Shown one piece after another: positions 42,402 through 61,346 of a DNA stretch of 64,000 bases. The translations under genes were made by a program, and so were the position numbers. Each line of letters starts with the position of its first letter. The stretch's first letter is position 1. The stretch lies in contig CAVRFK010000003.1 in assembly GCA_963720365.1 (NCBI GenBank), forward strand, positions 32,381 through 96,380. Reading direction: 5' to 3'. This stretch comes from an uncultured Gemmatimonadales bacterium. GTDB taxonomy: Bacteria > Gemmatimonadota > Gemmatimonadetes > Gemmatimonadales > GWC2-71-9. A model generated the notes under the pieces. The model worked only from the letters and a program-made list of their open reading frames with translations, was not told the DNA's origin and made no database searches.

Positions 42402-43268
42402 ATGGCATGGTTTAAGAAGGAACGAAAGCCACGCACGTCGCAGCGGGAACGTCTCGAGATCCCGCCCGATGCCTGGGAGAAGTGCGACGGTTGCGGGCAC
42501 ATCGATCTGCGCGAGAAGTTCGAAAAGGCGCTGAACGTCTGCCCGGAATGCGGGCGGCATCGCCGCATCTCGGCGGACGAGTACATCGAGATCCTCACGG
42601 ATCCCGGCTCCTGGCGCGAGCTGTACGCCGACCTGCGCTCGGTGGACCCCCTGCATTTCGAGCACTATGCCGAGCGGCTGGCCGCCGCCCGCAAGAAGGC
42701 CGGCGGGGCGGACGCGATCATCACCGGCACCGCCAAGATCGATCGGCTGCCCTTCAATCTCGGGGTCATGAACTTCGCCTTCATGGGCGGGTCCATGGGC
42801 TCGGTCGTGGGGGAGAAGATCGCGCGGTTGGCCAGGCGCTCGCATGAGAAGAAGCTGCCCCTCGTCCTCGTCTCCACCTCGGGTGGCGCCCGGATGCAGG
42901 AAGGCGTGCTGTCCCTCATGCAGATGGCCAAGACCTCCGCCGCGATCGCCCAGCTCCACCTCGAAGCCATCCCCTACATCTCCATCCTGACCGATCCGAC
43001 CACCGGCGGCGTCTCGGCCTCGTTCGCCATGCAGGGCGACGTGATCCTGGCCGAGCCGGGCGCGGTGATCGGGTTCGCGGGGCAGCGGGTGATCAAGCAG
43101 ACGATCGGCCAGGATCTCCCCGAGGGCTTCCAGACGGCGGAGTTCCTGGTCGAGCATGGCCAGATCGACGACGTGGTCCCGCGGGGCTCGCTCCGGGACA
43201 CCACCGCGCGACTTCTGCGGCACATGCAGGGGCAGCGACCGCTGGCGGAGCACGCCGAGCTGAGTTGA
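42402..43268 (+). CDS. accD: acetyl-CoA carboxylase carboxyltransferase beta subunit
   Basis: MAWFKKERKP..WEKCDGCGHIDLREKFEKALNVCPECGRH (Zn ribbon), FMGGSMGSVVGEK. An in-frame ATG at 42393 is an alternative start. Confidence 0.85.
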   Translation: MAWFKKERKPRTSQRERLEIPPDAWEKCDGCGHIDLREKFEKALNVCPECGRHRRISADEYIEILTDPGSWRELYADLRSVDPLHFEHYAERLAAARKKAGGADAIITGTAKIDRLPFNLGVMNFAFMGGSMGSVVGEKIARLARRSHEKKLPLVLVSTSGGARMQEGVLSLMQMAKTSAAIAQLHLEAIPYISILTDPTTGGVSASFAMQGDVILAEPGAVIGFAGQRVIKQTIGQDLPEGFQTAEFLVEHGQIDDVVPRGSLRDTTARLLRHMQGQRPLAEHAELS

Positions 43269-43292
43269 CGCGAGACGGGTCTCGCACGCTCC

Positions 43293-43334
43293 GGCGCCCC
43301 ACCCCGCGGTTCGTAGGGTGGGGCGCTGGTGTTT
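43293..43334 (+). terminator. intrinsic terminator after accD
   Basis: GCGCCCCACCC-(11 nt loop)-GGGTGGGGCGC: perfect 11-bp stem, followed by TGGTGTTTTCTG. Confidence 0.6.
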
Positions 43335-43351
43335 TCTGACGGATCATCAGG

Positions 43352-44585
43352 ATGCCTCTGACCTACGACCAGGCCCTCGACTTCCTCTTCCCCCGGACCA
43401 CGACGATCAAGTTCGGGCTCGCCACCACGCGCGCCCTGCTCAGATCGCTCGGCAATCCGCACGAGGTGGTGCCCACGATCCACGTCGGCGGCACCAACGG
43501 GAAGGGAAGCGTCTGCACCCTGGTCGCCGCGGCGCTTCGGGAGGCGGGCTGGCGCGTGGGCCTGTACACCTCGCCCCACCTGGTCTCGTTCCGGGAACGC
43601 ATCCGGGTGGATGAGGTGCCGATCAGCGAAGCGGCCGTGGCGATGTGGACCGAGCGGCTCCAGCCGCTGATCCTGGAGCGCAAGGCCACCTTCTTCGAGG
43701 CGACGACCGCGATCGCGTTCGCGGACTTCGCCGCGCGGGGCGCGGAGATCGCCGTGGTCGAGGTCGGGCTGGGCGGGCGGCTCGACAGCACCAACGTGGT
43801 GCGCCCGCTGGTGAGCGCGGTGACCAAGATCGAGCGCGACCACATGAAGTATCTGGGCGATACGCTCGAAAAGATCGCCGGCGAGAAGGCGGCGATCGCG
43901 AAGCCGGGCGCCCCGTTCGTCATCGGCGAGCGGGAGCCGGAGCTGGTGGAGGTGCTCCGCCGGGATGCCCACCGCGCCGTCGCCCGGCTGGAATCGTCGG
44001 CGCGCGCCGATATCAGGATCATGCCGCCGGACTACGAGTGGACCGGACCGCTGGGACTGGCGGGTCCCCACCAGCGACGAAACGCCGGCGTGGCGCACGG
44101 CATCCTCATGGCCCTGCCCGAGCGCTGGCGGCCCGATGCCGGAGCGGTCGCTCGCGGCTTCGCCAGTGCGTGGATCCCCGGCCGCCTCGACCGGCGGGGG
44201 AAGTGGCTCTTCGACGTCGCCCACAATCCCGACGGCATCCGCGCGCTGGTGGCGGCGCTGGAGGCGACCCGGCCGCCACGCCCGATCCACGCGCTGGTCT
44301 CGATCCTGGGCGACAAGGAGTGGCCCGACATGCTGGTGCGGCTCGACCGCGCCATCGACCGCGGGGTGCTCACCGTGGCGCCGACCGCCGCCAGCCGGGG
44401 CTGGGACGCGGCCTGGCTCCGGCGCTGGCTGAGCGACGCATCGCGCCCGCCTGCGCGCGCCTCGTGGACGCTGGTGCCCGACTTCACGACCGCGCTTGGC
44501 GGAGGTTCAGCGCGGCGCCGGCACGGTGCTGGTGACCGGCTCGTTTCACACCGTTGGCGACGTGATGGGCGCGCTCGGCATGTGA
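43352..44585 (+). CDS. folC: bifunctional folylpolyglutamate synthase/dihydrofolate synthase, one frame break
   Basis: IHVGGTNGKGS, VEVGLGGRLDSTN, DVAHNPDG. The true C-terminus GTVLVTGSFHTVGDVMGALGM* is in the +1 frame after an extra base near 44496-44502. Confidence 0.8.
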
Positions 44586-44606
44586 GCGGAGACCGGCTGC
44601 CCCGAC

Positions 44607-44612
44607 TATCTT
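44607..44612 (+). promoter_or_regulatory. -10-like TATCTT upstream of hisS (leaderless start implied)
   Basis: TATCTT ends 7 nt before ATG 44620. No clear -35 hexamer was found. Confidence 0.3.
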
Positions 44613-44619
44613 GAGGCCC

Positions 44620-45900
44620 ATGCAACCGCAGGCCCTGCCGGGATTTCGCGACTTCTATCCCGCCGATTTCGCGCTCCGGGACCACATCTTCCGGACCTGG
44701 CGCAGCGTCGCGGCGCGCTACGGTTTCGAGGAGTACGACGGGCCCCCGCTGGAGCCGCTCGAGCTGTACACGGCGAAGAGCGGCGAAGAGATCGTCGGGC
44801 AGCTCTACAGCTTCACCGACAAGGGCGAACGCGAAGTATCCCTGCGGCCGGAGATGACGCCGACGCTGGCCCGGATGGTCGCTGCGCGCGCGAGCGCGTT
44901 CCGGAAGCCGATCCGCTGGTTCTCCATCCCGCAACTCTTTCGCTACGAGCGGCAGCAGCGGGGGAGACTTCGAGAGCACTTCCAGCTCAACTGCGACCTG
45001 ATCGGCGAGTCGAGCCACCTCGCCGACGCGGAGATCGTGGCGCTGGCGATCGATGCGCTGCGGGCGTTCGGCCTCGGATCGACGGACTTCCGGGTCCGGC
45101 TGTCGGACCGGCGGCTGCTGACGGCGGTGCTCCGTGCATTGGAGCTGAGCGAGGCGCAGGTGCCGGTGGTGTACCAGGTCTTCGACAAGCTCCGCCGGAC
45201 CAAGGAAGAGACGTCGGTCGAGCGGCTGGCGGCCGCCGGCATCCCGAAGCCGACCATCGACCGGCTCCTCGGCCTCGCGCGGGCCAAAGTCGTGGGCGGA
45301 GCTGCGCGACGCTCGGCGCCGGGCTGGACGCCGCACTGGCGGAGGGCGAGTCGCTGCGGCGCACCCTCGATGCGCTCGGCGCGATGGGCTTCGGCGAGTA
45401 TCTCGATCTCGACCTGGGGATCGTCCGCGGACTCGCGTACTACACCGGGACGGTCTTCGAGCTGTTCGACGCCAAGGGCGAGCTGCGCGCCATCTGCGGC
45501 GGCGGCCGCTACGACAACCTGCTCCAGTCGCTCGGCGGGGTGGATCTCCCGGCGCTCGGCTTCGGCATGGGCGACGTGGTGCTGGGCGAGCTGCTGCGGG
45601 ACCGCGGGCTGGCGCCGGCAGCGGCGTCGAGCATCGACGTCTTCCTCGCGGCGATCTCCGAGGAGGATCTCGCCGGAGCTGCTCGGTCTCGCGCGCGAGC
45701 TGCGGGACGCGGGGTTCCGGGTCGAGTACGCGCTCTCGCCGCAGGCGGTGGGCAAGCAGCTCAAGCTGGCCGACGCGCGGAACGCGCGGGCCGCGATCGT
45801 GATCGGCCCGGATGATCGCGCGCGGGGCGAGGTGATGCTCAAGGACCTGCGCGGGAAGGGGCAGACGGGGGTGCCGCGGGGATCGGTGCGGGAGCGTTAG
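44620..45900 (+). CDS. hisS: histidine--tRNA ligase, three frame breaks
   Basis: [17 protein letters not shown].., [28 protein letters not shown]. Frame path 1->2->0->1. Segments WAELRD (about 45294-45310), [40 protein letters not shown] (ORF 45384..), then [19 protein letters not shown] back in the first frame from about 45672. Confidence 0.85.
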
Positions 45901-45926
45901 GGAAGCTTTTGGCGGCAGAAGCATAG

Positions 45927-45994
45927 TGTCACCCTGAGCGAAGCGAAGGGGGCATGAGTCAGCCGATGGCTCCTTCGCTTCGCTCAGGATGACA
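45927..45994. repeat. palindromic REP-like element (copy 2)
   Basis: TGTCACCCTGAGCGAAGCGAAGGGG (45927-45951), an 18-nt loop, then CTCCTTCGCTTCGCTCAGGATGACA (45970-45994). Lies between hisS and proS. Confidence 0.65.
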
Positions 45995-46015
45995 AATACC
46001 AGAAAGGAACCACGG

Positions 46016-47465
46016 ATGGCGGAAGCAAAGGCGTTGACCCCGAGGGCAACCGATTTCAGCGCCTGGTACAACGAGCTGATAGCCAAGGCCGAGCTGGCGG
46101 ACTACAGCCCCGTGCGCGGGTGCATGGTCATCCGGCCGAACGGCTACGCCATCTGGGAACAGATGCAGCGCGCGCTGGACCAGATGTTCAAGGACACCGG
46201 CCACCAGAACGCCTATTTCCCGCTCTTCATCCCCCAGAGCTTCCTGAGCCGGGAGGCGGAGCACGTCGAGGGGTTCGCGCCGGAGCTGGCGGTCGTCACC
46301 CACGGCGGCGGCAAGGAGCTGGAGGAGCCGCTGGTCGTCCGGCCGACGTCGGAGACGATCATCTACGCGATGTACGCGAAGTGGATCCAGAGCTACCGCG
46401 ATCTGCCGCTGCTGATCAACCAGTGGGCCAACGTGGTCCGCTGGGAGATGCGCACCCGCCTCTTTCTCCGCACGACCGAGTTCCTCTGGCAGGAGGGGCA
46501 CACCGCCCACGCCACCGAGGCGGAGGCGGAGGAAGAGACGCTGCGGATGCTCGGCGTCTACCGCACGTTCATGGAAGAGTGGATGGCGATGCCGGTCGTG
46601 ACCGGCCGGAAGACGGACAGCGAGCGGTTCGCCGGCGCGCTTCGCACCTACAGCTGCGAGGCGCTGATGCAGGACAACAAGGCGCTCCAGGCCGGCACCA
46701 GCCACAACCTGGGGCAGAACTTCTCCCGCGCCTTCGAGGTCACTTTCCAGACCGCGTCGGGCGACCTCGACCACGTCTGGAACACCTCCTGGGGCGCCTC
46801 CACCCGGCTGATCGGCGCGCTGATCATGACGCACGGCGACGACGCGGGCATGATCTGCCCGCCGCGTCTGGCGCAGTACCAGGTCGTCATCGTTCCGATC
46901 TACCGGAGCGACGACGAGCGGGCCACCGTGCTCGAGACCGCCGAGCGGACGCGGAAGGAGCTGGCCGCGGCGGGCATCCGGGTGCACGTGGATGCCCGGG
47001 ACGGTATGAAGCCCGGCGCCAAGTACTACGAGTGGGAGGGCCGGGGCGTCCCGCTCCGCCTGGAGATCGGCCCCCGCGACATCGCGGCCGGCAACGTCGT
47101 GCTGGCGCGGCGCACCGGCGGCAAGAAGGAGAGCCTGCCGCTCGCCGGGCTCGGCGCCGCCCTGATCTCCGCCCTGGACGTGATGCAGCGCGAGATGCTG
47201 GAGGCGGCGCGCGCGCGCCGGGAGGCCAACAGCATCCGGGGCGCCACCAAGGAACAGTTCCTCGCCCAGCTCGAGAAGACCGGCGGATTCATCTACTCCG
47301 GCTTCTGCGGCCGCAAGGAATGCGAGGCGGAGATCAAGGAGCAGACCAAGGCGACCATCCGCGTGCTCCCCGACGAGGAGTTTCGCTCGCCCACCGTGCC
47401 GGCCACCTGCATGTGGTGTGGCACGGCCCACCGTCACGGAGGCGGTATGGGCGAGAGCGTACTGA
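46016..47465 (+). CDS. proS: proline--tRNA ligase (archaeal/eukaryote-like class IIa form), one frame break near the 3' end
   Basis: [30 protein letters not shown].., [19 protein letters not shown]. The canonical C-terminus [11 protein letters not shown] (stop 47463-47465) is in the +1 frame after an extra base near 47426-47431. Confidence 0.85.
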
Positions 47466-48773
47466 CCGCCGGCCCGGCCGGCGGCGAGCGCGTGCAGGCG
47501 GACACGGCTGGACTCTTCGCCGACGCCGGCCTCGAGCGGCGCGGATCGTCGCTCTATCTCGGCGGGGTCGCGCTCTCCGCGATCGCCGACGGGGCGGGCA
47601 CGCCGTCCTACGTCTACAACGCCGACGTGATCCGGCGGCAGTTCCGCGCGCTGGACGAGGCTCTGGCGCCGGTACCGCACCGCATCGCCTACGCGGTCAA
47701 GGCCAACGCGAACCTGGCGGTGCTCCGGATTCTCCGCGATCTCGGCGCGGGCGCGGACATCGTGTCGGGTGGCGAGCTGGCCCGTGCGCTGGCGGCGGGA
47801 TTCGATCCCGACGCGCATCGTGTTCAGCGGGGTCGGCAAGACGGACGACGAGCTGACCGCGGCGGTCGAGGCCGGCATCGGCCACGTGCACCTCGAGTCG
47901 ACCGCCGAGCTCGCGGCGCTCGGCCGGATCGTCGCCCGGGTGGGCAAGGGCGTCCACGTCGGGATCCGGGTGAATCCCGACGTCACCGCGGACACCCATC
48001 CCTTCATCGCGACGGGGCAGGGCGGGATCAAGTTCGGGGTGCCGGTGGACCAGGTGGTGCCGTTGGCGCTCGCGGTGCGGGAGCATCCGCTGCTGACGCT
48101 CGACACCATCGCGATGCACATCGGCAGCCAGCTTCTCGATCCGCGGCCCTACGCCGAGGGGCTGAACAAGCTGTTGGAGCTGATCGGCCGGCTGCGCGAC
48201 GCGGGCGTGGATACGCTCCGCTCGCTCGACGTCGGCGGCGGAATCGGTATCCGCTACCGGGACGAGCGTCCGCTGAGCCCAGCGGCGCTCGCCTCCACGG
48301 TGGTTCCGCTCGCGCGACAGAGCGGCCTCACGCTGGTGATGGAGCCGGGCCGCTACCTGGTGGGCAGCTCCGGCGTGCTGCTTACCACGGTCTTGTCGCG
48401 CAAGCATTCCGGCGGCAAGGATCTCGTCATCGTGGATGCCGGGATGAACGACCTGGTCCGGCCGAGTCACTACATGGCGTACCACGAGATGGCGGAGGTC
48501 GAGCTGCACGGCCGGCCGCGAAGCGGAGGTGGACGTGGTCGGTCCGGTGTGTGAGACCGGCGACTTCCTCGCCCGCGACCGCACCTTGCCGGGCCTCGAC
48601 CGTGGCGAGCGGATCGCCGTCCTGGGCGCCGGCGCCTACGGGTTCGTGATGGCCTCCAACTACAACACCCGCCCGCGGCCCGCGGAGATCATCGTGGACA
48701 GCGGGCGCTGGTGGGTGGCTCGTGTCCGGGAAGCGTGCCCGACCTCTACCGCGGCGAGAAGGTGTCACCCTGA
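47447..48773 (+). CDS. lysA: diaminopimelate decarboxylase, about three frame breaks; 3' end uncertain
   Basis: ATG 47447. [34 protein letters not shown]. Then ORF 47769.. ([21 protein letters not shown]), then ORF 48529.. ([34 protein letters not shown]). Probable end [11 protein letters not shown] at 48771-48773. Breaks near 47820, 48515 and 48737. Confidence 0.75.
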
Positions 48774-48787
48774 GCTCAGCGAAGGGA
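48763..48787 (+). repeat. half copy of the REP-like element (copy 3)
   Basis: TGTCACCCTGAGCTCAGCGAAGGGA with no matching right arm. Overlaps the inferred lysA stop and lies 7 nt before the guaA GTG. Confidence 0.5.
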
Positions 48788-48793
48788 ACGAGA

Positions 48794-50350
48794 GTGGCCC
48801 AGCACCACGACGGCATCCTGATCATCGATTTCGGCTCCCAGTACACCCAGCTCATCGCGCGGCGGGTTCGCGAGGCCCACGTCTACTGCGAGATTCATCC
48901 CCCCTCCCGCTCGGTGCAATGGATCCGCGAGTGGAAACCGAAGGGGATCATTCTCTCCGGCGGCCCCAACTCGGTCTATGACGAGGGCGTGCCGACGGCC
49001 GACCCGGAGCTGCTCGGGCTCGGCACGCCCGTGCTCGGTCTCTGCTACGGCATGCAGGTGCTGGCCCAGCTCTCCGGCGGCAGTGTGGTCCGCGCCAACC
49101 GGCGGGAGTACGGTCGGGCCAGCGTGAAGGTGGAGGGCGGGCGCTTGTTCCGAGGCTTCGGGCAAGGCGAGGAGACGCCGGTCTGGATGAGCCACGGCGA
49201 TCACGTGGACGTGCCGCCCGCGGGCTACCAGGTGACCGCCCGCAGCGACAACTCGCCCATCGCGGCCATGGAGCATGGAGAACTGCAGCTCTTCGGCGTG
49301 CAGTTCCACCCCGAGGTGGCCCACACGCCGCGCGGCGGGGAGATCCTCAACAACTTTCTCTTCGACATCTGCGGCTGCACGCCCGACTGGACGCCGGGCC
49401 ACTTCGTCGAGACCGAAGTCGCCCGGATCCGCGAGCTGGTCGGCCCCACCCAACGCGTCATCTGCGGACTCTCCGGCGGCGTGGACAGCTCGGTGGCGGC
49501 GGTGCTGGTGCATCGCGCGGTCGGCGACCGGCTGACCTGCATCTTCGTGGATCACGGCCTGCTCCGTCTCCACGAGCGGGAGCAGGTCGAGTCCACCTTC
49601 CGCCGGCACCTGGGCATCGACCTGCGTGTGGTGGACGCGAGCGACCGGTTTCTCGACCGGCTCGCCGGGGTCTCGGATCCGGAGGAGAAGCGGCGCCGGA
49701 TCGGTCACACGTTCATCGACGTATTCGAGGTCGAGGCGAAGTCGGTGGGGAAGGATGTCGGCTTCCTGGTGCAGGGCACCCTGTATCCGGACGTGATCGA
49801 ATCCGTCTCGCCGAAGGGCGGGCCTTCGGTCACCATCAAGACCCACCACAACGTCGGTGGTCTGCCCGAGCGACTGCCGTTCAAGCTCCTCGAGCCGTTG
49901 CGCGAGCTGTTCAAGGACGAAGTGCGACAGGTCGGCCGGGAGCTGGGCCTTCCCGAGGAGATGGTGGGCCGGCATCCGTTCCCGGGGCCGGGGCTCGCCA
50001 TCCGCGTGCTCGGCGACGTGACGAGAGAGAACCTCGACGTGCTCCGCAAGGCCGACCACATCTACATCGAGGAGATCCGCGGCGCCGGGCTCTACGACGA
50101 CATCTGGCAGGCGTTCGCGGTCCTGCTGCCGATCCGGTCGGTCGGGGTGCAGGGAGACTTCCGCACCTACGACCAGGTGATCGCACTCCGGGCAGTCACC
50201 AGCCGGGATGGAATGACGGCGGATTGGTATCCGTTTCCCCCGGAGGCGCTCGCGCGGATCTCGAGCCGCGTCGCGAACGAGGTCCAGGGGGTGAATCGGG
50301 TGGTGTACGATGTGAGCTCGAAACCGCCGGCGACGATCGAGTGGGAGTGA
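48794..50350 (+). CDS. guaA: GMP synthase (glutamine-hydrolysing)
   Basis: GTG 48794. [35 protein letters not shown], and the canonical C-terminus KPPATIEWE*. Confidence 0.9.
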
Positions 50351-50353
50351 ACT

Positions 50354-50381
50354 GCGTAAAGCGTGAACTCTTTACGCTTTA
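50354..50381 (+). terminator. hairpin terminator after guaA
   Basis: GCGTAAAG-CGTGAACT-CTTTACGC followed by TTTA. Unusually AT-rich for this sequence. Confidence 0.5.
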
Positions 50382-50398
50382 CCTGTGCCCTGCTGCGG

Positions 50399-52606
50399 TC
50401 ATGGCATCTCCCTGATCTGAAATTCTCTTCGCCTGGCGACGGCCCACCTGCCGGGGAAACCACTCGCACCTCGATGAGATACCGTCCCGGTTTGAGGCGT
50501 GCCAACTGGAGCGTGCGGTGCGCGCGGACGATCGCCTCGGTCGCGGGCTCGTCGAAGGCCAGCGTCACGACCGGCCGCCGTTCCGCGACGCCGCGCTCGC
50601 CCTTGATCCGAAACACGGCGATCTCGTGGCGATACGAGGCGCCAGGCCGGATCCCGCCGACCTCGTAGTAGAGCTCCATCTCGGCGTTCTCGAGGAAGAG
50701 GTCGAACGGAGTGAGCAGCACCGTGTCGCCCGGACGTCGCTTCCCATGCCGCGCTGGCGCCACGGATGCCGAGTGCCAGGTCACTGATCCAGGGCTTCGA
50801 TCCGCCGCCCGAGGCGGTGACCGTGTCCCTCGGCAGCACGGCGCCGGTGCTGTCGCCGAGCTGAATCGCGGCCCGCCATCTCCAACGGCCGTGGGGGAGC
50901 GCCAGCTCCACCCGGCCGATGAGATACTGGCTCCGTCCCAGCGGCGCTGGCGGGCCGGAAGACGATCGTGGTGTCGACGTCGGAGAACGGGCGGTTCGCC
51001 TCGTCGCTGGCGACGGCGCGCACGCGCGCGGTGTAGCGGACACCGTATTCGTCGCGCTCGGGCGTGGTGCCGGGCTCGGCGATGGCGAACACGAGGTGCC
51101 CGATCGTTCCCGACCCGACCGCGCCGACGGCTACCACGTCGGCCACCGCGCCGAGCGGCCGGGCGAACCGAAGCTCGTGGCTGTCGCTGGACGTTCCGAT
51201 CGCGATGCTCGCCTGGCCGATGCCGCGCTCCCGCGCGCGGGAGCGCGCCGCCCCGTAACGTCCCCAGTGCAGCATGCGCCCGTACACACTCGAGAGCGAC
51301 TGCCGCGAGAGCAGCAGGTCATCCTCGCGCGCGTCGGCCGCGCCGCGCAGGTCGAGCACGCTCTCGACCAGGCGGTAGTCGTACAGGTCTCCGCCGCCGT
51401 TCTGGTCGTAGCCCGAGCTGAAGTGGAAGAGGAGGTCGCCTTCGGCCCGGTCGAACCGCCACGATTCGTTGGGCATGAGACCGAAGACGAACGGGCGCAG
51501 CCGGTCCGAGGGCTCGCCGTGGCGCACGTAGATGATCCCCCGGTCGTCGATCTCCATGCCCCCGGAGCGGTACGCGTCCGCCGCGCCGTAGTACCGCCGG
51601 CTCACCGTGAGGGCGAAGTTGCGCCGCGCGAACAGCAGGCGCCGGTAGTGCTCGCGCAGCCGCTCGCCGTGGGCCCGCATCTCGCGCCGGTCGCGATCGG
51701 TCCAGAAGCGGCGGAGGAACTCCGCGCGTGCCGTACCCTCGACGCCGGTCGAAGGCGGTCAGCTCCGAATCGGCCGCCACCGCGGCGATGTCGGCCCGGT
51801 ATCCGCGAACCGCCACCGGGTCCGCCAGCGCCGCGCCCTCGTAGTATCCGCCTTCCGCGGTCGAATCCCCGGCCGCGAGCCGCGTGCGGGCAAGCTCCAG
51901 CAGCCCCAGCGCGCGACTCCCGCCCGCCGCGAGGTAGCGCTCGAACGCGGCGGCGGCCGCGGCGCCGTTCGCGGCGGCGCGCTCGACTCGCCCGAGCGCG
52001 AGCAGGACCTCCGGTGCGGCACGGGGCACGGCGCCTGCCCGGCGCAGCGCGTCCGTCGCCGAGGTGAGGAGCGAGGTGTCCCGCAGCTCCAGCGTGAGCG
52101 CCGCCAGCGTCTCCGCCGCGGGTGCGAAGGCCGGGTCCGCCTCGCAGGGCCTCCCGCTGGCGGCGCGCGGCGCGCTCCAGTGTCCCCATGCCGACACGGC
52201 TTCCGAGTGCGAGGCGGTCCTCCTGCTCCCACGCCGAGCGCTGCGCCTCCGCCAGGCCGAGCCAATGCCACGCCCATGGCCAGCCGGGCTGCCGTTTGGA
52301 CGCGGCCTCCAGGTTCCTGATCGCCTCGCGGGTATCGGGGTCGATCCCCAGCCCGGCGAGTCGCATCTCCACCATGCCGAGCCTCAGGCGGTCGAGGGCA
52401 TCGTCCGAGGCGCGTCGGAGGGTCTCCCGGATCGCTTGTCGGCGCGCGCGGAGCGAGCCGGAATCGGTGGTGGCGGCGATGGAGTCGGCAAAGGCCGCGA
52501 GCGAGACGCGCTGGGCCGGCGCCTGGACCGCGACGGCGGGAGGCGAGAAGGCGAGCAGGAGCCCGAGGCAAGCGACGGCCCGCCGCACCGTGCGGCCGGC
52601 CCTCAC
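50399..52606 (-). pseudogene. exported GWxTD-like domain protein, at least five frame changes as written
   Basis: GTG 52606, signal AVACLGLLLAFSPPAVAVQA. Successive pieces lie in ORFs 51602..52606, 51319..52197, 50781..51680 (FWTDRDRRE..HYRRLLFARRNF..DDRGIIYVRHGEPS resembles the GWxTD core), 50399..51043 and 50167..50784. The 3' end is uncertain. Confidence 0.4.
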
Positions 52607-52609
52607 GGG

Positions 52610-53062
52610 CTAGACTCCTTTTTCCTCCAGCAACTGAAAGAACTCTTCCGGGTGGGCGAGGGCCGCGAGCCGTTCAGGCATGTTCGCCTCCTTGGCGAAC
52701 TGCGCGATCCGTCCGAGGACGGGCAGGTACTGATTGGAGATCTCGAGCGGGGGCGCGACGATGAGGAACACGTGGAACACCGGCTTGCCGTCGATCGCCT
52801 GAAACTCGATGCCCTTGCGGGACCGGCCGTAGGCGAGGCGGAGGCGGTTGGCGACCAGCGAGCGGCAATGGGGGATCGCGATGCCGCGGCCCATCCCGGT
52901 CGAGCCAAGGCTCTCGCGCCGCTGCAGGACCCGCAGCAGCGTGTCTCCGGCGCGTGGGTCCACGCCGAGCAGGCGGACCAGGTCGGTGAGGACTGAGTCC
53001 TTGTCCGTTGCCTGGAGATCGAGATCGATCGCACCTGGAGTGAAAAATTCCCTGAGACGCAT
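52610..53062 (-). CDS. ptsN: PTS EIIA-Ntr type regulatory protein
   Basis: 150-aa ORF. RESLGSTGMGRGIAIPHCR (active-site His context) and HVFLIVAPP. Confidence 0.75.
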   Translation of the reverse strand: MRLREFFTPGAIDLDLQATDKDSVLTDLVRLLGVDPRAGDTLLRVLQRRESLGSTGMGRGIAIPHCRSLVANRLRLAYGRSRKGIEFQAIDGKPVFHVFLIVAPPLEISNQYLPVLGRIAQFAKEANMPERLAALAHPEEFFQLLEEKGV

Positions 53063-53066
53063 GAGC

Positions 53067-53124
53067 GCGGGGCGGAAGGATTGTCGCAGGCCGGGAAAGC
53101 TGCGGCAACCTAATTCCGCCCCGC
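53067..53124 (-). terminator. long hairpin between the beta-propeller gene and ptsN (terminator or ptsN translational control)
   Basis: GCGGGGCGGAA (53067-77) pairs with TTCCGCCCCGC (53114-24): 11 bp, perfect, 36-nt loop with an inner 5-bp stem. The proximal arm ends 4 nt from the ptsN ATG. Confidence 0.35.
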
Positions 53125-53131
53125 AAAGGTG

Positions 53132-54412
53132 TCAAAGCGGCAAGCGAAGCACCACCGTCGGCTGGAGTTCGTCGGGCTCGGCGATGCGGCCGTCCTCGCC
53201 GAAGCGCTCCCACTGACTGTTCGCCACGTAGTAGAGCGCGTCGCCGACCAGGACCCCGAGGGTCGGCTCGTTGTAGCGCGGATGCGCCCGCTCCAGGATC
53301 TCGCCCCGAATCACCCGGTCGCCGGCCTTGCTCAGGGTGAAGCGGCTGACCCGATGAGGCTGGACTCCGTTCTGAATGCCGATGAGCTTGCCGTCCCGCC
53401 AGTAGAGACCGTCGATCCCCAGGGGGAGCACGCTGTCCGCGGCCTCGAGCGCCGTCACGGTTCGGGCCTGCAGGTCCACCCGCAGGAGACCTCGCGCGTA
53501 GTCGGCGACATAGAGCGTTCGCTCGTCCGGCGTCAGCGCCAGTCCCTGCGCGGAGAGGAACAGGGGAGACTCCAGGAACCGCTCCAGGGTGTCGCCCCTG
53601 GCCGGGATCCGCCAGAGCACCGGTGCGCGGCTGTCGGTCGCGTAGACGTCGCCGGCGCGGGTCACGATCAGGTCGCCGAGGGCGTGAGGCGTGCTGTCGG
53701 CGGGCACGTCGTAGCGCTTGGCCAGCTTGCTGGTGCGCAGATCGTAGCGGAGGACGCCGCTGCGGCCGCTGTCCGCGGGGACATGCCCCGTCGTATGCGG
53801 CATCGCGGTAGAAGCCGCCCAGAGCGCCTGCCGCTTGGAATCCACCCGCAACCCGAGCGCGGCCCAATGGGCCGGCTCGTCCGGCGCGAGCTGGGTGACC
53901 GCGCCGCCCTTGGCGACGCGGAGGATCTGCCCCCGGCGGACCGAGCTGACGTAGAACGCCTCCGTCTTCGGGTCGTAGGCGATGCCCTCGGTGAGCAGCT
54001 CCCGCTCGGGCACCTCGAAGGCCACGCTGCTCGGGGAAACCGGCTGGCGATTCTGCTCCAGCCTCCGCGTCACCTCGGCATAGGCCTCGTTGCCGCGCAG
54101 GCGGACGAAGTCGGAGTCCGTCGCGAGGTCGGCCGAGTAGCCGAGCACGGCGAAGTGCCGCAGGGTGGCGATGGCGCCCGCGGTATCTCCCGTCAGGGCG
54201 TAGGCGGAGGCCAGGGCGTAGGTGACGCCGCCGTGGGCCGGGCGGAGGGCCTGCGCCTGGCGGGCGTGGTCCAGAAAGGCGGGAAGGTCGCGGGACTCGT
54301 AGGCCCGAACGGCCGCCCGGTAGTGGGCCCGGGACTCGGCGACTGGGTCGCCCTGGGCCTGGAGCAGGGCGGGCAGGGCGGCGGCCAGCAGCAGGACGCG
54401 GAGCATGGTCAT
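53132..54412 (-). CDS. exported protein with N-terminal TPR-like helices and SMP-30/gluconolactonase/LRE-like beta-propeller repeats
   Basis: 426-aa ORF. Signal MTMLRVLLLAAALPALLQAQG. Repeated ..EGIAYDP.., ..LYVAD.., ..DGLYW.. blade-like motifs. Function not assignable. Confidence 0.45.
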   Translation of the reverse strand: MTMLRVLLLAAALPALLQAQGDPVAESRAHYRAAVRAYESRDLPAFLDHARQAQALRPAHGGVTYALASAYALTGDTAGAIATLRHFAVLGYSADLATDSDFVRLRGNEAYAEVTRRLEQNRQPVSPSSVAFEVPERELLTEGIAYDPKTEAFYVSSVRRGQILRVAKGGAVTQLAPDEPAHWAALGLRVDSKRQALWAASTAMPHTTGHVPADSGRSGVLRYDLRTSKLAKRYDVPADSTPHALGDLIVTRAGDVYATDSRAPVLWRIPARGDTLERFLESPLFLSAQGLALTPDERTLYVADYARGLLRVDLQARTVTALEAADSVLPLGIDGLYWRDGKLIGIQNGVQPHRVSRFTLSKAGDRVIRGEILERAHPRYNEPTLGVLVGDALYYVANSQWERFGEDGRIAEPDELQPTVVLRLPL

Positions 54413-54498
54413 GGGGGTGGGGTTTGAGGTGAAAACGGGTCCTCTTCAGCGCTACGGACGCCGCTGAGGCCAGGTTCCACACGCCCCAGGCGGGCGCA

Positions 54499-54527
54499 TT
54501 GCCGAGGTCCCGACCGCCAAGTATTTT
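54499..54527 (+). promoter_or_regulatory. candidate promoter for dusB operon (TTGCCG-N17-TATTTT), leaderless start implied
   Basis: The -10-like hexamer at 54522-54527 ends 6 nt before ATG 54534. Confidence 0.35.
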
Positions 54528-54533
54528 CCGGGC

Positions 54534-55513
54534 ATGCAGTTGCCCTTCCCGAGCGAGCACAGGTTTCCCCTTATCCTCGCACCCATGGCCGGCGTCTCCG
54601 AGGCGCCGTACCGCCAGGTGTGCCGCCGGATGGGCGCGGACGTCGTGATCTCCGAGTTTCTCTCGTCGGAGGCGATCCGACGCCGGATCCGGCGCACGCT
54701 GGAGGGCGCCGAGTTCGAGGAGGTCGAGCGGCCGATCGGCATCCAGATCTACGGCTCCGATCCGGCGGCGATGGAGGAGGCGGCGCGGCTCATCACCGAG
54801 CATTACAAGCCGGAGTTCATCGACATCAACTTCGGCTGCCCGGTCAAGAAAGTGGTGCAGCGGAACGGCGGCTCCGGCTGTCTCCGGGATCTCGAGCTGG
54901 TGGACCGGATCATCAAGGCGGTGATCGGCGCGACCCACCTCCCGGTCACGGCCAAGACCCGGAGCGGGTGGAGCGACCAGTCCCGCGACCCCGTCGGCAT
55001 CGCGCTCCGGATGCAGGATGCCGGCGTGCGAGCCTTCACCCTGCACGCCCGCACCCGCACCCAGATGTTCTCCGGCCGCGCCGACTGGGATGAAATCGCG
55101 AAGGTGGTCGAGGCGCTGGAGATTCCGGTGTTCGGCAACGGTGACGTCTCCACCGCCGCCGACATCGTGCGGATGCGCGATCACACCGGGTGCGCGGGCG
55201 TCATGGTCGGGCGCGGCGCCTTCGGCAATCCCTGGCTCTTCCGCGACGGCCAGGCGCTGCTCGCCGGCGAGCCCCAGCCGCCGGCCCCGACCGCGCACGA
55301 GCGGTTCCAGGTCGCCCTGGATCACGCGCGGCTCGCGCTCCGGCTCCAGGGCGACACCCGCAAGACCGTGATCGAGTTCCGCAAGCACCTCGGCTGGTAC
55401 ACCAAGGGACTGCATGGCGCGAGCGAGCTGCGCCAGCGACTCTTCCAGATCGAGTCGGTGGCCGAGGCGGAGTCGATCTTCCTCGAGTACCTCGACCCGG
55501 TCGCCCACGTGGC

Positions 55514-55517
<4 letters not shown>
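54534..55517 (+). CDS. dusB: tRNA-dihydrouridine synthase
   Basis: LILAPMAGVSEAPYRQVCRRMGADVVISEF, DINFGCPVKKV, AFTLHARTR, PVFGNGDV. Confidence 0.85.
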
Positions 55518-56262
<745 letters not shown>

Positions 56263-56266
<4 letters not shown>

Positions 56267-57213
56267 CCATCCGCACCGTCGTGGAAAAATCGGAGCCGCG
56301 CTTCGTCTGGCTCGACGTGGTGGACCCGAGTCCGGAGGAGCTCGACGAGCTGACCGCCGACTACGGCCTCCATCCGCTCGCGGTCGCCGACTGCCTCGAC
56401 CCCGAGCACCTGCCCAAGCACGAAGTCTTCGAGAACCACACCTTCGTCATCCTGCGCGCGATGGACGAGTCCGCCTCGAAGACGGCCGATTCGGTGCAGG
56501 AGCTCACCCGGAAGACCGCGCTCTTCTTCGGGCAGGGGTTCCTGATCACGGTCCACCGCAAGGACCAGGCGTGGCTCACGGCGCTCCAGCAGCGCTGCCT
56601 CACCGGTCTCCCCAACAAGCAGGCGGCGCGCAGCGAAGGGATCCAGGCCCATCTCCTCGCGCAGCTCTTCAATGCCGCGCTCGACACCTATCAGCGTCCG
56701 CTGGAGAACATCGAGAACCGGCTGGACCAGTTCGACACCAAGGTCTTCGAGGGGAGCACCGCGCCGGGGCCGAGCTTCCGCTCGGATCTCAGGGAGATCC
56801 ACTGCCTCAAGCGACAGCTCACGCTCAGCAAGCGGCTGCTCTGGCGGACGGTGGACGTGACCCAGCGGATGGTGCCCGCCGCCGGGCGCGCCGGCACGCT
56901 GTTCCGCGACGTGCAGGAGAACGCCGAGAGCTATCACTTCTACGCCGATGAGCTGGTGGAGGACGCGAACACCCTGCTGAACGTGCAGCTCGCGCTGGCT
57001 TCGCATCGGACGAGCGAGGTCATGCGGGTGCTGACGGTCTTCTCCGTCTTCTTCCTCCCGCTCACCTTCATCGTCGGCGTCTACGGGATGAACTTCGAGT
57101 TCATGCCCGAGCTGCGCGAGCGCTGGGGATATCCCGCCGTCCTGGCCTTCATGGCCGTGGTGACGCTCGCGATCTATCGCTGGTTCCGCAGCCGTGGCTG
57201 GCTCGGCCGATGA
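56263..57213 (+). CDS. corA: CorA family divalent-cation transporter
   Basis: 316-aa ORF with the YGMNFEFMPEL signature (GMN) between two C-terminal TM helices. ATGA overlaps on both sides. Confidence 0.85.
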
Positions 57214-58651
57214 GCTTCTGGACGCTGCTCATCGGCATCCTGGTGGGCGTCGGCGGGGCGATGGCGCTCATCCGGCGCGCGCGGGTGAGCGGCGTGGCGC
57301 CGGGTGTGTCGCCGCATCTGCTGCCGGACCCCGCCCTCGAGTGGCTGCGGCGGGCGCACGGCGCCGCCGGCGTGTGGGTGGCGGAGATGAGCAGCGGCGA
57401 CGGCGAGCCGCACGCCGAGCGGGTGGTGGACGCCGAGCGGCTGTCGGTCGCCCAGATCGTGGCGGTGGACCGCCGGCTCGAGCGGGCGCAGAGACCAGGA
57501 GCAGAGCGGCGCCGAGCGGATGGAGGGCGGCACGCTCGTCTTCCACGCGGCCGCGGGAGTCGCGGTCGGGCTGCTGGTGCCGGGCAGCCCCGACTCGGCC
57601 CGCCTGGAGGCGGCGGAGAGCGACCTCCGGCGCCTGGCGGACGGCGTGCGCCGGCGGCCGCAGATCGTGCAGCTCGCGCAGGCCAGCACCCAGGAAGCGT
57701 CCCTGGAGTCGGTGGGGAGCGTCGGGCTCAGGCTCGCCTACCAGCTCGAGCGGATGCTCGACGCCCAGGTCGTCGTGGCCGCGTTCGAGCGTGGCGACTG
57801 AGCTGGGCGACGAGCCGGACACGGCCGGCACCGTGCGCGTCATCGGCGTCTCCGGCCGCGGCGACCGCCGACTGCTGGACTCGGTGCTCCCGCCCGACAG
57901 CGATCTCGCCCGCGTCGCCCGAGGCGAGATGGACCCGATCTTCTTCGAGGGCGACCCGCTCGCCGGCGTGGTGCCGGACCGCCGCCAGCGGCCCGGCGCC
58001 GTGCTCGTGTTGCCGATGCGCGCCGGCGAGCGCCACGTCGGCGGCGTCGCGCTGTGGCCACCGGGCGGGCGCGAGCCGACGGGCGGCGTGCGCGCGGAGA
58101 TCCTCGCCTCGCTCGCCAACGCCGGGCCCCGCGTGGTGACCGCGATGGAGGCCGACCGGCTCAAGGAGAAGACCCGGCTCGATCCGCTCACCGGCCTGCT
58201 CAACCGGCGGGGGCTGGATGCCGTGCTGAACCGGGTGGACGTGGGCGACGGCGCCGTCATCTACGCCGACCTCGACAAGTTCAAGGATCTGAACGACAAG
58301 CTGGGGCACCCCGCAGGCGACGCCGCGCTCATCCACTTCGCGCGGATCATCCGGGAACAGGTCCGGAACGGCGACGTCGGTGCGAGGATCGGCGGGGAAG
58401 AGTTCGCCATCTGGCTCCCGGCCGCGCGGCTGGACGTGGGCTACCGGATCGCCGAGCGGATCAGGATCAAGCTCAACACGACGCCGTGGGACTGGCGGGG
58501 GCGGGCCTGGGCGCTGAGCGCGTCGTTCGGCGTGTCGGCGTGTCCGGAGACCGGGCGGGAGGTGGGAGATCTCATTCCGCAGGCGGATGCGGCGCTGTAC
58601 GTGGCGAAGAACAGCGGGCGGAACCGGGTGGAGAGGGCGGGGGGGAGGTAG
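57210..58651 (+). CDS. membrane-anchored diguanylate cyclase (GGDEF domain), two frame breaks
   Basis: ATG 57210 with TM (LLIGILVGVGGAMALI). Middle piece is ORF 57520..57801. The C-terminal piece in ORF 57194..58651 carries DPLTGLLNRRG, DLDKFKDLNDKLGHPAGD, RIGGEEF and AALYVAKNSGRNRV. Breaks near 57489 and 57793. Confidence 0.75.
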
Positions 58652-58660
58652 GGTGGACGG

Positions 58661-58692
58661 GCGGTCAGGCGGTCAGGCGGTCAGGCGGTCAG
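58661..58692 (+). repeat. tandem octamer array (GCGGTCAG)x4
   Basis: Four perfect head-to-tail copies starting 10 nt after the GGDEF stop. Confidence 0.9.
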
Positions 58693-58747
58693 GCGATGAA
58701 CGATCACGAATGTCGAAGTAAGTAATTGGCCACTTATGTACTTACAT

Positions 58748-58780
58748 CTGACCGACTGACCGACTGACCAACCTGACCGC
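58748..58780 (+). repeat. tandem octamer array in inverse orientation (CTGACCGA, CTGACCGA, CTGACCAA, C+CTGACCGC)
   Basis: Reverse complement of the 58661-58692 unit (CTGACCGC), with the last base or two variable. Separated from the first array by a 55-nt AT-rich core. Confidence 0.85.
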
Positions 58781-58804
58781 CTCCCCGGACAATCGCCAAT
58801 CCAT

Positions 58805-58810
58805 TATCTT
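58805..58810 (+). promoter_or_regulatory. -10-like TATCTT upstream of ssrA
   Basis: Same hexamer as upstream of rplM, pccB and hisS. Ends 12 nt before the mature tmRNA 5' end. No good -35 hexamer. Confidence 0.3.
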
Positions 58811-58822
58811 CCCACGTCACCC

Positions 58823-59186
58823 GGGGGCGACTGGCTTCGACGGGTATGATGATGAAATTGCAGCGTGCCCAGGTCCCAGAATCCTGGTTAAACCATCTGG
58901 AACGTTTCAACTGCCAACACTGAACTGGCACTGGCCGCGTAAGCTGAGCTAACGCTCGCTTGATGCGCCTTCGGCAGACGAAGCCCGCCCGGGGCGGCGT
59001 CGGTCGAATCGTAAATCCGGGCTGGCCGATCGCATCGCTCCGATGCGTGAGGTGAGACTTCAGGAGCTCGGCCGAGGGGAGGTCGGTTCGGCACCGACCC
59101 GAGGCGACGGCAAGAAGACGAGCCTACGCACGTAGACGCAGTCTCGGAAGCGTATTCGGACCAGGGTTCGATTCCCTGCGCCTCCA
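58823..59186 (+). ncRNA. ssrA: transfer-messenger RNA (tmRNA), tag peptide ANTELALAA
   Basis: 5' GGGGGCGACUGGCUUCGACGGG pairs with 3' ..CGCCUCC-A (7 bp with G3-U). T-arm GGGTTCGATTCCC. Tag ORF GCC AAC ACT GAA CTG GCA CTG GCC GCG TAA at 58913-58942. The 3' CCA is not encoded. Confidence 0.9.
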
Positions 59187-59194
59187 TCAACACC

Positions 59195-59235
59195 AACGGC
59201 GGGCGAGATCATGCGATCTCGCCCGCCGTTTGTTG
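59195..59235. terminator. perfect 16-bp hairpin after ssrA (bidirectional terminator candidate)
   Basis: AACGGCGGGCGAGATC-ATGC-GATCTCGCCCGCCGTT followed by TGTTG. Lies between ssrA (+) and convergent 59257..59826 (-). Confidence 0.7.
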
Positions 59236-59256
59236 CTGCTATCCCTCCGCCGCCGA

Positions 59257-59826
59257 TCAGCTCACGCGGTCGGCGCAGAAGTGACCACCGGACTCCGACC
59301 CGACCACGCCGCTCTGCCACGTGCCGGCGAAGCCCTTGTCGGTGACCTGCTGGACCTGGAGCGCGGTGAACGCGCCGTCGAACCGGCGCACGCCCCACTT
59401 GTTGGCTTCCGATCCGATGCGCAGCATCACCCGCCCCGGGCCCTGCATGACCAGCACGCCTGGGCCGGTCGGCTCGGAGGCCTTGGGATCGCCCGGCGCG
59501 ACCGCGCCGACCGAGGCCAGGTCCACCTCGGTCATGCCGTAGAGGGGCATGGTGAAGCTGGTGTCCTTCATCCCATCGGCCGTTTGCACGCTGCGATAGG
59601 CGCTGTCCTGCTGCATGAGCGACAGCTTTCCCGCGGCTGTGCTGCCGCGTTTGGCCCCGGCCGTCGCAACCAGCCGCAGGGTGTACTCCCCGCCGAGTCC
59701 GTCGGCGGACACGCTCGCGGCCGGTGTTTCTACCGGAGCGCAGTTCTGCGGATCCGAGCTGCCCGCGTTGGCGCCGCTGCAACCCGCCAGCAGCAGCACG
59801 CCGCCGATTCGCCAGGAGGCGCTCAT
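59257..59826 (-). CDS. hypothetical lipoprotein
   Basis: ATG 59826 (ATGA overlap with the upstream protease stop). Lipobox GGVLLLAGCSG. 189 aa. No family recognised. Confidence 0.45.
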   Translation of the reverse strand: MSASWRIGGVLLLAGCSGANAGSSDPQNCAPVETPAASVSADGLGGEYTLRLVATAGAKRGSTAAGKLSLMQQDSAYRSVQTADGMKDTSFTMPLYGMTEVDLASVGAVAPGDPKASEPTGPGVLVMQGPGRVMLRIGSEANKWGVRRFDGAFTALQVQQVTDKGFAGTWQSGVVGSESGGHFCADRVS

Positions 59827-61346
59827 CGCTTGAGCACTCCGACCATGCGACCATCGGGCGTGATCCCGCGGATGGGATCGCTGATGATGTCGTTGACCAT
59901 GTGGCGGCCCCGTCGTTGTCCCGCGACGCGGATGGTGGGGAGGGTGAGCGTGAAGGGATCCGCGCCCCCCGCGTTCACCGTGTAGCCTAGGTCCTCGAGC
60001 GACCGAACCGAGATCGCGCTCAGAGGATTGACCCCGTCGCTCAGGAAGCCGGTCATGACTTCGGGATCGAAGATCTCGTCGCGCCAGTGGCTGTTGATGG
60101 TGCCGGCGCCACCCACGTCCATGACCGGGACCTTGGCGCCGCCGACGTAGGCGGTGCCGCCCGCCGCGTCGAACGCGGCGATCGCGCCCGACACCGGTGA
60201 AGTGGGGATCCTCTTCCGCCGGCGTATTCGGATCGGCTGGGTCCACCAGCAGGTCGAACCCACTCGGCGGCGGGCCCCACAGCGTGCCGAAGCCGAGCAC
60301 GTGGCCCATCTCGTGGAGGATGACGGCATTCAGCGCGCCCTCGGTCTCCAGCAGCTCCATGTCGTCCTCGTCGAACTGCATCCGCCCGATCACGGTCAGC
60401 CCCTCGCCCGTGGTGGCGCCGACCCGCACGAAGCAAGGGCCCGGCCTGGCCGAGCACGCCGAAGGGTCCGTCGATCGGCTCGATGGTCACGAAGATCGTC
60501 ACGTCGTCGAACGGACCGGGCGTCTCGGGATTGTCGCCGCAGGCATTCGGCAGGAAGCGTCTGATTCACGTCGTCGAGGTCGCCGGTGATCAGGGTTTCC
60601 CAGCGCAGCTCGGCCTCGGCGAACGCGAGCAGCTGGGCGTTGCTGAGGTCGGTGAGGTAGCGAACCGTGATGTTGTAGCCGCCCTGCTCGGCCGTGGTGG
60701 CGATGAACTCCAGGGGCTCGCCGTCGATCTCGGCGCCCTCGACCGACGCGGTCAGGGTGTTGACGCCGGACGCGCCGAGTCGCCAGGAGCCGAGCGTCGC
60801 GATGCCGCTGGCGTTCGTCGTCTGCAATTCGCCGGTGATCGTGCCACTCGCGGTGCCCACCGTGAAGCGGACCCGGACGCCCGGGACCGGATTGCTCGAC
60901 CCGTCCCGAACCCGCACCGACGGCGGCGTCGCGACCGCGGTACCGGAAGGAGCCGACTGGCCGTTGCCGTCCGCGATCTCGAGCGAGGCGGTGGATTGGA
61001 CCACGATCTCCGCGGTGGCCGTAGCCTCGCCCGCCGTGGCGGTGAGCTCGGCCGTGCCGGGTCCCTGCGCCGTCAACAGCCCGTCGGCCGTCACCGTCGC
61101 GATCGCGTTCGTCATCCGTGGACCAGGTGACCTGCCGCGTCGGTCAGCGTATTGCCGTCCGCATCCCGCACCGTCGCCGTGAGCTGCTGGCTCTGCCCGG
61201 CGGCGAGGAAGCTGATCTGGTCGGAGGAGCAGCTCGATCTCGGCGGGGACCTGAGGATCCGACCCTCCGCCGCCGCAGGCGCTGACCGCGACGAGAAGAG
61301 CCAACGTCCCGTGGAGCGAGTGGCGACGCCTGTACCAGGATGGCAT
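59823..61346 (-). pseudogene. lipoprotein with Big_2-like domains and leishmanolysin-like (M8) zinc metalloprotease domain; six frame changes as written
   Basis: ATG 61346, lipobox LLVAVSACGG. Ig-like VTWSTDD/NAIATVTADGLLTAQGPGTAELTATAG. Catalytic VILHEMGHVLGFG, and downstream GGAGTINSHWRDEIFDPEVMTG. Pieces lie in ORFs 60396..62417, 61112..61489, 60053..60502, 59257..60429 and 59823..60329. Confidence 0.6.

Follow-up and report, generated by a model that had tools for sequence, protein, structure and literature searches.

We analysed a 64,000-nucleotide stretch of the genome of an uncultured Gemmatimonadales bacterium (hereafter the window; contig CAVRFK010000003.1 of assembly GCA_963720365.1), in which two inverted arrays of tandem octamers enclose an AT-rich core between the gene of a GGDEF diguanylate cyclase and the transfer-messenger RNA (tmRNA) gene ssrA. 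Judged by sequence comparison, this element is a hypervariable and dispensable array pair, a member of a class that recurs after gene ends and whose two arms change in concert. With moderate confidence, we read it as one copy of a fast-evolving class of hairpin-forming inverted microsatellites behind Gemmatimonadales genes, which would have originated by slippage and template switching and would serve as hairpins of the 3' untranslated region (3' UTR). For these hairpins we infer a role as transcription barriers or RNA-end stabilisers.

Architecture and folding of the element

The element was resolved into the following parts, none of them assigned to a strand:

58643..58659: weak outer stem extension, GGGGAGGTAGGGTGGAC (inverted repeat of 38 nt, 74% complementary; minimum free energy (MFE) structure)
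58660-58695: G-rich arm, GGCGGTCA x4.5, perfect tandem octamers (Tandem Repeats Finder (TRF) period 8, score 72, 100% matches)
58696-58747: AT-rich core or loop, 52 nt, 37% GC (composition)
58748-58780: C-rich arm, CTGACCGA, CTGACCGA, CTGACCAA, an extra C (58772), CTGACCGC (TRF score 48)

The left array holds four full GCGGTCAG units (58661-58692) followed by a partial GCG; the four perfect tandem octamers described in an earlier note on this DNA are therefore confirmed, with a partial unit added by the TRF call of 4.5 copies from 58660. The right array, called by TRF at 58748-58779 with period 8, 3.9 copies and 87% matches, likewise bears out the four reverse-complement units reported at 58748-58780, apart from the extra C at 58772. 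Compared with the exact reverse complement of the G-rich arm, it has one mismatch per unit and one 1-nt insertion, and the arm-to-arm inverted repeats of 22 nt are 91% complementary. The AT-rich island between the arms stands out against flanks of approximately 70-80% GC, although it measures 52 nt within the bounds given above and not the 55 nt first reported. The outer extension reaches across the GGDEF stop codon, and its pairing with approximately 58781-58797 is imperfect; it includes GGGGAGG at about 58643 with CCTCCCC at 58780-58786.

The interval 58640-58800 folds as one long hairpin, both as RNA (-80.5 kcal/mol, z -6.7) and as DNA (-47.9 kcal/mol, z -8.3), and none of 200 shuffles was as good in either case. 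The suggestion of a long, imperfect stem formed by pairing of the arrays thus holds; the stem comprises about 30 arm-to-arm pairs at -63 to -80 kcal/mol. The core alone folds no better than its shuffles (MFE -7.8, z -0.6). Consequently, the 7-bp inner repeat pointed out earlier (GTAAGTA, 58718-58724; TACTTAC, 58739-58745) is present but not above chance, and a structured core or small RNA was rejected on the same value. In Rfam 15, solely generic hairpin models (miRNA precursors) matched the element, far below their thresholds, and the only gathering-score match in the window was the tmRNA. A core stretch, CCACTTATGT..TTACA, is common to the window and its closest relative, L119, in their alignment.

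The arrays exceed chance. All exact 16-mer (two-unit) matches in the window fall within this locus, and at up to 3 mismatches there were 10 matches against 3.1 expected, a number reached in none of 100 shuffles. No second GCGGTCAG array was found in the 64-kb window.

Orthologous GGDEF-ssrA spacers

We compared 11 distinct orthologous GGDEF-ssrA spacers, the window included. Searching metagenomes with the GGDEF protein gave distant paralogues for the most part and only five true orthologous loci; the other loci came from exact-protein look-ups. Paired arrays occur in 4 of the 11 spacers (window, L119, L176 and L179), with different units and copy numbers each time. The contents of the spacers are as follows:

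Window: GCGGTCAG arrays
L119: GGCGGACG/GGCGGTCA x6.9 versus GTCCGCCC x6
L176: GGAACGCC x13.8 versus CCGCCGTC x5.6
L179: GGCGGAAG-type arrays
L175: relic of the C-rich arm only
L120 (identical to L121) and L178: REP-like palindrome in place of arrays
L122: nothing
L177: nothing; 70 nt long
L180 (identical to L181): 44 nt, promoter only
L182: 44 nt, promoter only

The speed of change is seen between the window and L119. At the DNA level, identity is 96.7% for the GGDEF gene, 97.2% for the upstream 3 kb and 99.4% for the 5' part of the tmRNA gene, whereas the spacer reaches only 69%, and nearly all right-arm units differ in the alignment.

The 44-nt spacers (L180 2944-2987 and L182 2398-2441) retain T[AT]CCAA, 17 nt and TATA[AT]T, which leaves about 10 nt up to the 5' end of the mature tmRNA. 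Since these spacers still hold a clear promoter, close relatives express ssrA without arrays; the same T[AT]CCAA-17-TATA[AT]T promoter is clear in the array-less L120 at about 1560-1595. The array-bearing spacers (window 58781-58822, L119, L179 and L176) have TTATCTTCCC or TTATGCTTCC in common, and no -35 box can be recognised in them. In these genomes, ssrA may therefore rely on a promoter that has a -10 box alone, or on read-through followed by processing.

The nearest match to the GGDEF C-terminus that lacks a downstream ssrA is at L123. There, positions 199-460 hold GACGGCGG x4 and GGCGGAAGA x4 versus TTCCGCCTC x5, arranged around a REP-like palindrome and followed by a convergent gene. 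Because this locus has arrays but no ssrA, the arrays go with the GGDEF 3' end and not with ssrA. The location given in the earlier note, upstream of ssrA, was right; the reading of the repeat as specific to ssrA fails on the orthologous spacers. An ssrA-specific cis-regulatory element was rejected, as the arrays are neither conserved upstream of orthologous ssrA genes nor, judging by 12 Gemmatimonadota loci from a pattern scan, preferentially beside ssrA. As far as these spacers tell, genomes can do without the element, and it does not serve as a regulator specific to ssrA.

Recurrence at other loci

One genome per bacterial species (185,579 genomes) was scanned for GGTCAGNNGGTCAGNNGGTCAG, which represents three spaced GGTCAG units. 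The scan returned at least 118 loci, at least 17 of them from Gemmatimonadota. ARAGORN, run on 12 of the 17 listed Gemmatimonadota loci, found no tmRNA gene. In the listed Gemmatimonadota loci, the GGTCAG array is usually followed by a variable core and then by an inverted array.

In a TRF survey, arrays were paired by reverse-complement unit, a criterion that itself places the partner arm within 0-2 mismatches. About 19 distinct inverted array pairs were found in 246 kb of Gemmatimonadota DNA at unrelated intergenic sites. Their common layout runs from a G-rich array with units of 7-10 nt through a variable core to a reverse-complement C-rich array, with units that vary by site (GGCGGTCA, GGGCGGAC, GGCGGGAGAG, GGCGGAAGA, GAGGGATA, AGTGGGTC, TGGTCAGA, CAGAAAG). 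In every polar case from Gemmatimonadota, the G-rich arm precedes the C-rich arm in the 5' to 3' direction, which by symmetry is true on both strands. Most pairs form long hairpins, with z from -5 to -12. The earlier note had named absence from orthologous spacers and freely varying copy number as marks of a plain microsatellite. Absence from most of these spacers and free variation of copy number were both found; however, the repeat is more than a plain microsatellite, because its polar arrangement of paired arrays is seen again at many loci.

Of the pairs for which both flanks were scored, all 19 fall between co-directional or convergent genes and none in a divergent intergenic region; the same applies to all six single arrays with both flanks scored. 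In general, about 15% of intergenic regions are divergent. At this rate, p is about 0.05 for 0 of 19 and about 0.02 for 0 of 25, as a rough estimate. The arrays often begin 0-60 nt past a stop codon. Their cores are diverse: a REP-like palindrome in L004, L051 and L123, textbook hairpin and T-run terminators in L066 and L071, loops of 8-11 nt in some others, and unstructured AT-rich DNA in the window, L119, L176 and L179.

In this seeded sample, the metagenome-assembled genome (MAG) MFD05684.bin.2.194 carries three elements in 16 kb (L097 and L101), and approximately seven further pairs were found in 136 kb of seeded loci. Two near-identical elements in L097 (1872-2086 and 2960-3138) flank one gene of about 0.9 kb. 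Their left arm and core are the same, while their C-rich arms comprise CTGACCGC(C) x15 and x9.5, which hints at duplication or mobility of whole elements. Octamer arrays stand at contig ends in 2 of the 17 listed Gemmatimonadota loci (L011 52-86 and L090 1-33). Such arrays probably break short-read metagenome assemblies and are hence under-counted in MAGs.

Among the fetched loci, the same architecture was seen in low-GC and other phyla with different units (AGTTGGTC, AGAGGTC, ACGAATG, GTAAGGG):

Eubacteriales: L104 7687-7930
Lentisphaeraceae: L071 3067-3302
Anaerolineae: L050 743-909 and 3999-4085
Bacillota: L092 1890-1972 and 2210-2287
Acidobacteriota: L109 372-512 and 3122-3314, the latter being the sole C-first case seen

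A separate family of REP-like palindromes, GTCAYCCYGARCGNAGYGARGG with its inverse, is present in the window at 13708-13774 and 45927-45994, with half-sites at 48764-48785 and 16062-16083. Its members are intergenic and just past stop codons; it has seven matches in the window against 0.07 expected, and among 182 fetched loci it was seen only in those from Gemmatimonadota. This family takes the place of the arrays in the GGDEF-ssrA spacers of L120, L121 and L178 and supplies the core in L004, L051 and L123. It had no match in Rfam, and we found no paper on it.

Flanking genes and promoter region

The surroundings of the element, all on the + strand, are:

57194..58651, +: GGDEF diguanylate cyclase gene (open reading frame (ORF) list; Pfam PF00990, E 7.6e-36; orthologues and synteny)
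58805-58810, +: likely ssrA -10 hexamer TATCTT (position matches TATAAT/TATATT of orthologous spacers; conserved in the window/L119 alignment)
58823-59186, +: tmRNA gene ssrA, tag peptide ANTELALAA (ARAGORN; Rfam RF00023, 139.4 bits)
59192..59233, +: terminator-like hairpin of ssrA itself, then TTTGTTG (inverted repeat, 19-nt arms, 95% complementary, 4-nt loop)

The GGDEF gene, whose stop codon is at 58649-58651 and whose nearest homologues are from Gemmatimonadales, is the last of a conserved dus-AIRC-corA-GGDEF block. The element begins 9 nt past this stop, and the order dus-AIRC-corA-GGDEF-ssrA is kept in relatives. Beyond the ssrA hairpin, flank frame statistics indicate a convergent gene. 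A 944-aa ORF without a Pfam match on the - strand (52674-55508) overlaps the + strand dus gene (54534-55517; PF01207 in orthologous loci) and probably represents a shadow ORF, the genome being high in GC. The tmRNA tag is ANTELALAA in the window, L120 and L122, and ANTQLALAA in the relative L121 (2075-2436).

TATCTT at 58805-58810, located 12 nt 5' of the mature tmRNA 5' end, is the likely -10 hexamer of ssrA, inferred from its alignment with the orthologous promoters, and lies outside the repeat element. A scan for sigma-70 consensus sites returned none in 58400-59400 and none in 40001-60000. The proposal that CTGACC in the repeat serves as a -35 box was discarded, because its last copy (58773-58778) is 26 nt 5' of TATCTT, beyond sigma-70 spacing. 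A phase-variable promoter microsatellite was rejected as well: the second array stops at 58780, ahead of the place where a -35 box with 17-nt spacing would fall (58782-58787), and the repeat is not in an ORF.

Proposed mechanism and alternatives

We propose that each arm lengthens and shortens by replication slippage, and that arm complementarity would be kept by template switching within the palindrome (quasipalindrome) or by repair. Arrays would tend to build outward from a small pre-existing hairpin at a gene 3' end. At this locus, the element would form the transcribed 3' UTR of the dus-AIRC-corA-GGDEF operon and would fold into a stem of more than 30 bp. This stem would impede transcription that reads on into the ssrA promoter, or would shield or set the 3' end of the mRNA. 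That the element acts where the upstream operon ends, as the earlier note had also raised, remains plausible.

Several observations weigh against this reading. The C-rich arm lacks a following T-run and the arms enclose a loop of 52 nt, so the element is not a canonical intrinsic terminator. Paired arrays are missing from 7 of the 11 orthologous spacers, so any benefit is small. Moreover, the array-bearing spacers are not monophyletic in a crude UPGMA (unweighted pair group method with arithmetic mean) tree of the GGDEF C-terminus, from which L122 was left out as its translation looked frameshifted. Their history may involve several losses, gains or recombination. Arm copy numbers are often very unequal (13.8 versus 5.6 in L176, 4.4 versus 12.6 in L026, 4 versus 14.8 in L097), and a few pairs fold no better than shuffles (L176, z -0.7; L097, z +2.5); together, these two facts argue against strict selection for a perfect stem. 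The survey densities are biased upward, since each locus was seeded by one GGTCAG array, and the window itself has one element in 64 kb. Finally, gene orientation was taken from statistics of third-position GC (GC3) and codon frame in the flanks and not from annotated genes; these statistics recover the GGDEF gene and the convergent gene after ssrA.

Canonical terminators with hairpin and T-run are not enriched in 20 kb of this genome (5 versus 5.4 expected), which weakly hints that there is room for other 3'-end structures. If termination falls in the core, RNA arriving from either side would hold only the G-rich arm. A wider version of the proposal, which we consider doubtful, extends it beyond Gemmatimonadales genes. 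It holds that Gemmatimonadota and scattered Anaerolineae, Lentisphaerota, Bacillota and Acidobacteriota share undescribed polar inverted microsatellites that grow symmetrically around 3'-end hairpins. These would present the G-rich arm first to RNA polymerase from either side, and would act as a distinct kind of barrier to transcription from both directions, or as an RNA 3'-end module, where genomes lack canonical T-run terminators. Their polarity would come from an RNA-level or transcription-coupled mechanism, the candidates being a G-rich 3'-UTR array that precedes the point of termination, a Rho site that is masked, and an RNA G-quadruplex.

The alternative that survives best is that the arrays are a neutral mutational by-product, namely palindromic microsatellites that form and change through slippage and template switching at hairpins already present, last only because they are tolerated at gene 3' ends, and bring the cell nothing. 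We regard this as possible but distinctly less likely than the proposal above. Frequent loss among close relatives and free variation of unit and copy number speak for it, as do the unequal arms and some poorly folding pairs. It can also explain location and polarity, which could be inherited from the cores, often pre-existing REP-like palindromes or terminators. However, both the G-first polarity and the absence from divergent regions must then come from the seeding hairpins, and 4 of 11 spacers, over a range of 87-99% protein identity, retain the architecture with changed units.

A signal related to Rho or RNase III is improbable. In this explanation, the C-rich arm would be a Rho loading site that the G-rich arm masks or unmasks, or the stem of more than 30 bp would be an RNase III site that splits the operon mRNA from the downstream RNA. 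Long duplexes are classical RNase III substrates. The Rho version is based on the C-rich arm having one YC dinucleotide per 8 nt and more C than G. C-rich arms are often much the longer, leaving a C-rich, G-poor single strand (CTGACCGC x9.5 in L097; x12.6 in L026), and single arrays are C-rich in the likely transcript in all three clear cases (L059, L101 and L116). The lack of enrichment of canonical terminators reported above also speaks for this explanation. In the window, however, the C-rich arm is just 33 nt long with 39% C, and the predicted fold leaves hardly any of it unpaired.

The earlier note had raised the idea of iterated, symmetric sites bound by a protein that controls ssrA; we find such sites, whether for control of ssrA or of the GGDEF operon, very improbable. 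The regular 8-bp units, their inverted symmetry and their place beside a promoter suit such sites, and a GGCGG core is common to many arrays across loci. Furthermore, deletion of heptamer repeats in Nostoc altered promoter activity in reporter assays (bioRxiv 10.1101/2022.06.06.494920). Yet the units differ among loci, and even between the window and a relative with a 99% identical protein; copy numbers vary too, and units without GGCGG exist (GAGGGATA, AGTGGGTC, CAGAAAG). Most ssrA orthologues lack arrays, and the 44-nt spacers keep a consensus-like promoter. In addition, the 8-bp period is out of helical phase, and the arrays are upstream of the -35 position.

Least probable among these explanations is a non-autonomous mobile element resembling a MITE (a miniature transposable element bounded by inverted repeats), with octamer arrays as terminal inverted repeats, inserted upstream of ssrA. 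Inverted arms around a core, the two near-identical copies that flank one gene in L097, and the patchy presence among orthologous spacers recall such an element. On the other hand, neither cores nor units are conserved between loci, no target-site duplication or flanking direct repeat was seen at 58640-58800, and the 64-kb window has no second copy. The four array-bearing spacers (window, L119, L176 and L179) share the flanking promoter sequence and a TATGT core motif, so vertical descent at one site fits.

The remaining candidates were set aside on single grounds: a remnant of an integration site, as islands that target tmRNA genes do so at the 3' end and not on the 5' side; Chi-like arrays guarding a cleavable palindrome, as the units are too diverse for one motif; cruciform extrusion in duplex DNA, as the 52-nt spacer is too long; and a DNA or RNA G-quadruplex, as the window copy has only two-G runs.

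Significance

For this locus, the tempting idea of a tmRNA control device is removed. For Gemmatimonadales, the results describe a recurrent, fast-evolving repeat architecture of intergenic regions, in which two regularities call for a mechanism: the arms change together while the units differ by site, and the G-rich arm comes first. The elements occupy the places expected for terminators in a genome without enriched canonical terminators, and how transcripts end in GC-rich, poorly studied phyla is an open practical problem of annotation. The elements also provide natural examples of how palindromes and microsatellites change. The class is moderately interesting, and the single locus is of low interest.

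Comparison with known systems

Quasipalindrome template-switch mutagenesis (reportedly described by Ripley in 1982 and in later work on E. coli) is said to copy a change in one arm to the other, which matches the concerted arm-to-arm change seen here. It is a mutational process and not a family of elements, and it would act here as proposed above. Judging by its title, a 1997 paper by Vioque reportedly places short tandemly repeated repetitive (STRR) arrays inside the RNase P RNA gene of heterocyst-forming cyanobacteria.

The STRR heptamer arrays of cyanobacteria are intergenic, occur at many loci and form hairpins between genes (e.g., hupS-hupL), for which transcript stability and translational coupling have been suggested (PMC2670836). 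With inverted, intergenic 8-nt units in 4.5 and 4 copies and a hairpin z of -6.7, the window element resembles them. The earlier note knew of no element described with this layout. The STRR hairpin arrays are a described analogue, and for Gemmatimonadota the statement still stands as far as our literature search reached: it found no description of such arrays, and none with the array sequences, although its coverage was incomplete and absence is no proof. The units of the present class are GC-rich and 7-10 nt long (8 in the window), whereas the cyanobacterial heptamers are AT-rich, and the host belongs to another phylum; the window element is thus an analogue and not a member. The strict order of G-rich arm, core and C-rich arm and the diversity of units between loci are documented here and not in the STRR papers found.

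The TAACTGA repeats of marine Beggiatoaceae, some Cyanobacteria and Bacteroidetes are patchy intergenic tandem repeats as well (MacGregor 2015, PMC4679880). They share with the present arrays the abundance of short intergenic units and the patchy distribution across phyla. However, they consist of one fixed heptamer in 169 direct sets versus 1 indirect set, mostly just upstream of start codons, with a proposed translational role (PMC4679880), while the arrays described here are inverted pairs with variable units, just past stop codons.

Repetitive extragenic palindromes (REPs), with bacterial interspersed mosaic elements (BIMEs) and REP doublets forming hairpins (REPINs), are also hairpin-forming extragenic elements at gene 3' ends; termination, mRNA stabilisation and supercoiling are their proposed roles (PMC3733652). 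REPs are conserved palindromes of 20-40 bp copied genome-wide, in contrast to tandem units without a conserved sequence. A true REP-like family (GTCAYCCYGARCG...) coexists with the arrays in this genome and is sometimes the core between them. Intrinsic terminators share with the element a GC-rich hairpin directly past a stop codon, and L066 and L071 enclose a hairpin with a T-run. The window stem differs in its length of more than 30 bp, its 52-nt loop and the lack of a T-run, being followed by CTCCCCGGACAATCG, and a terminator consensus scan gave no site at the window element. Set among these systems, the window element is a GC-rich, octamer-based and strictly polar variant of tandem-repeat hairpins.

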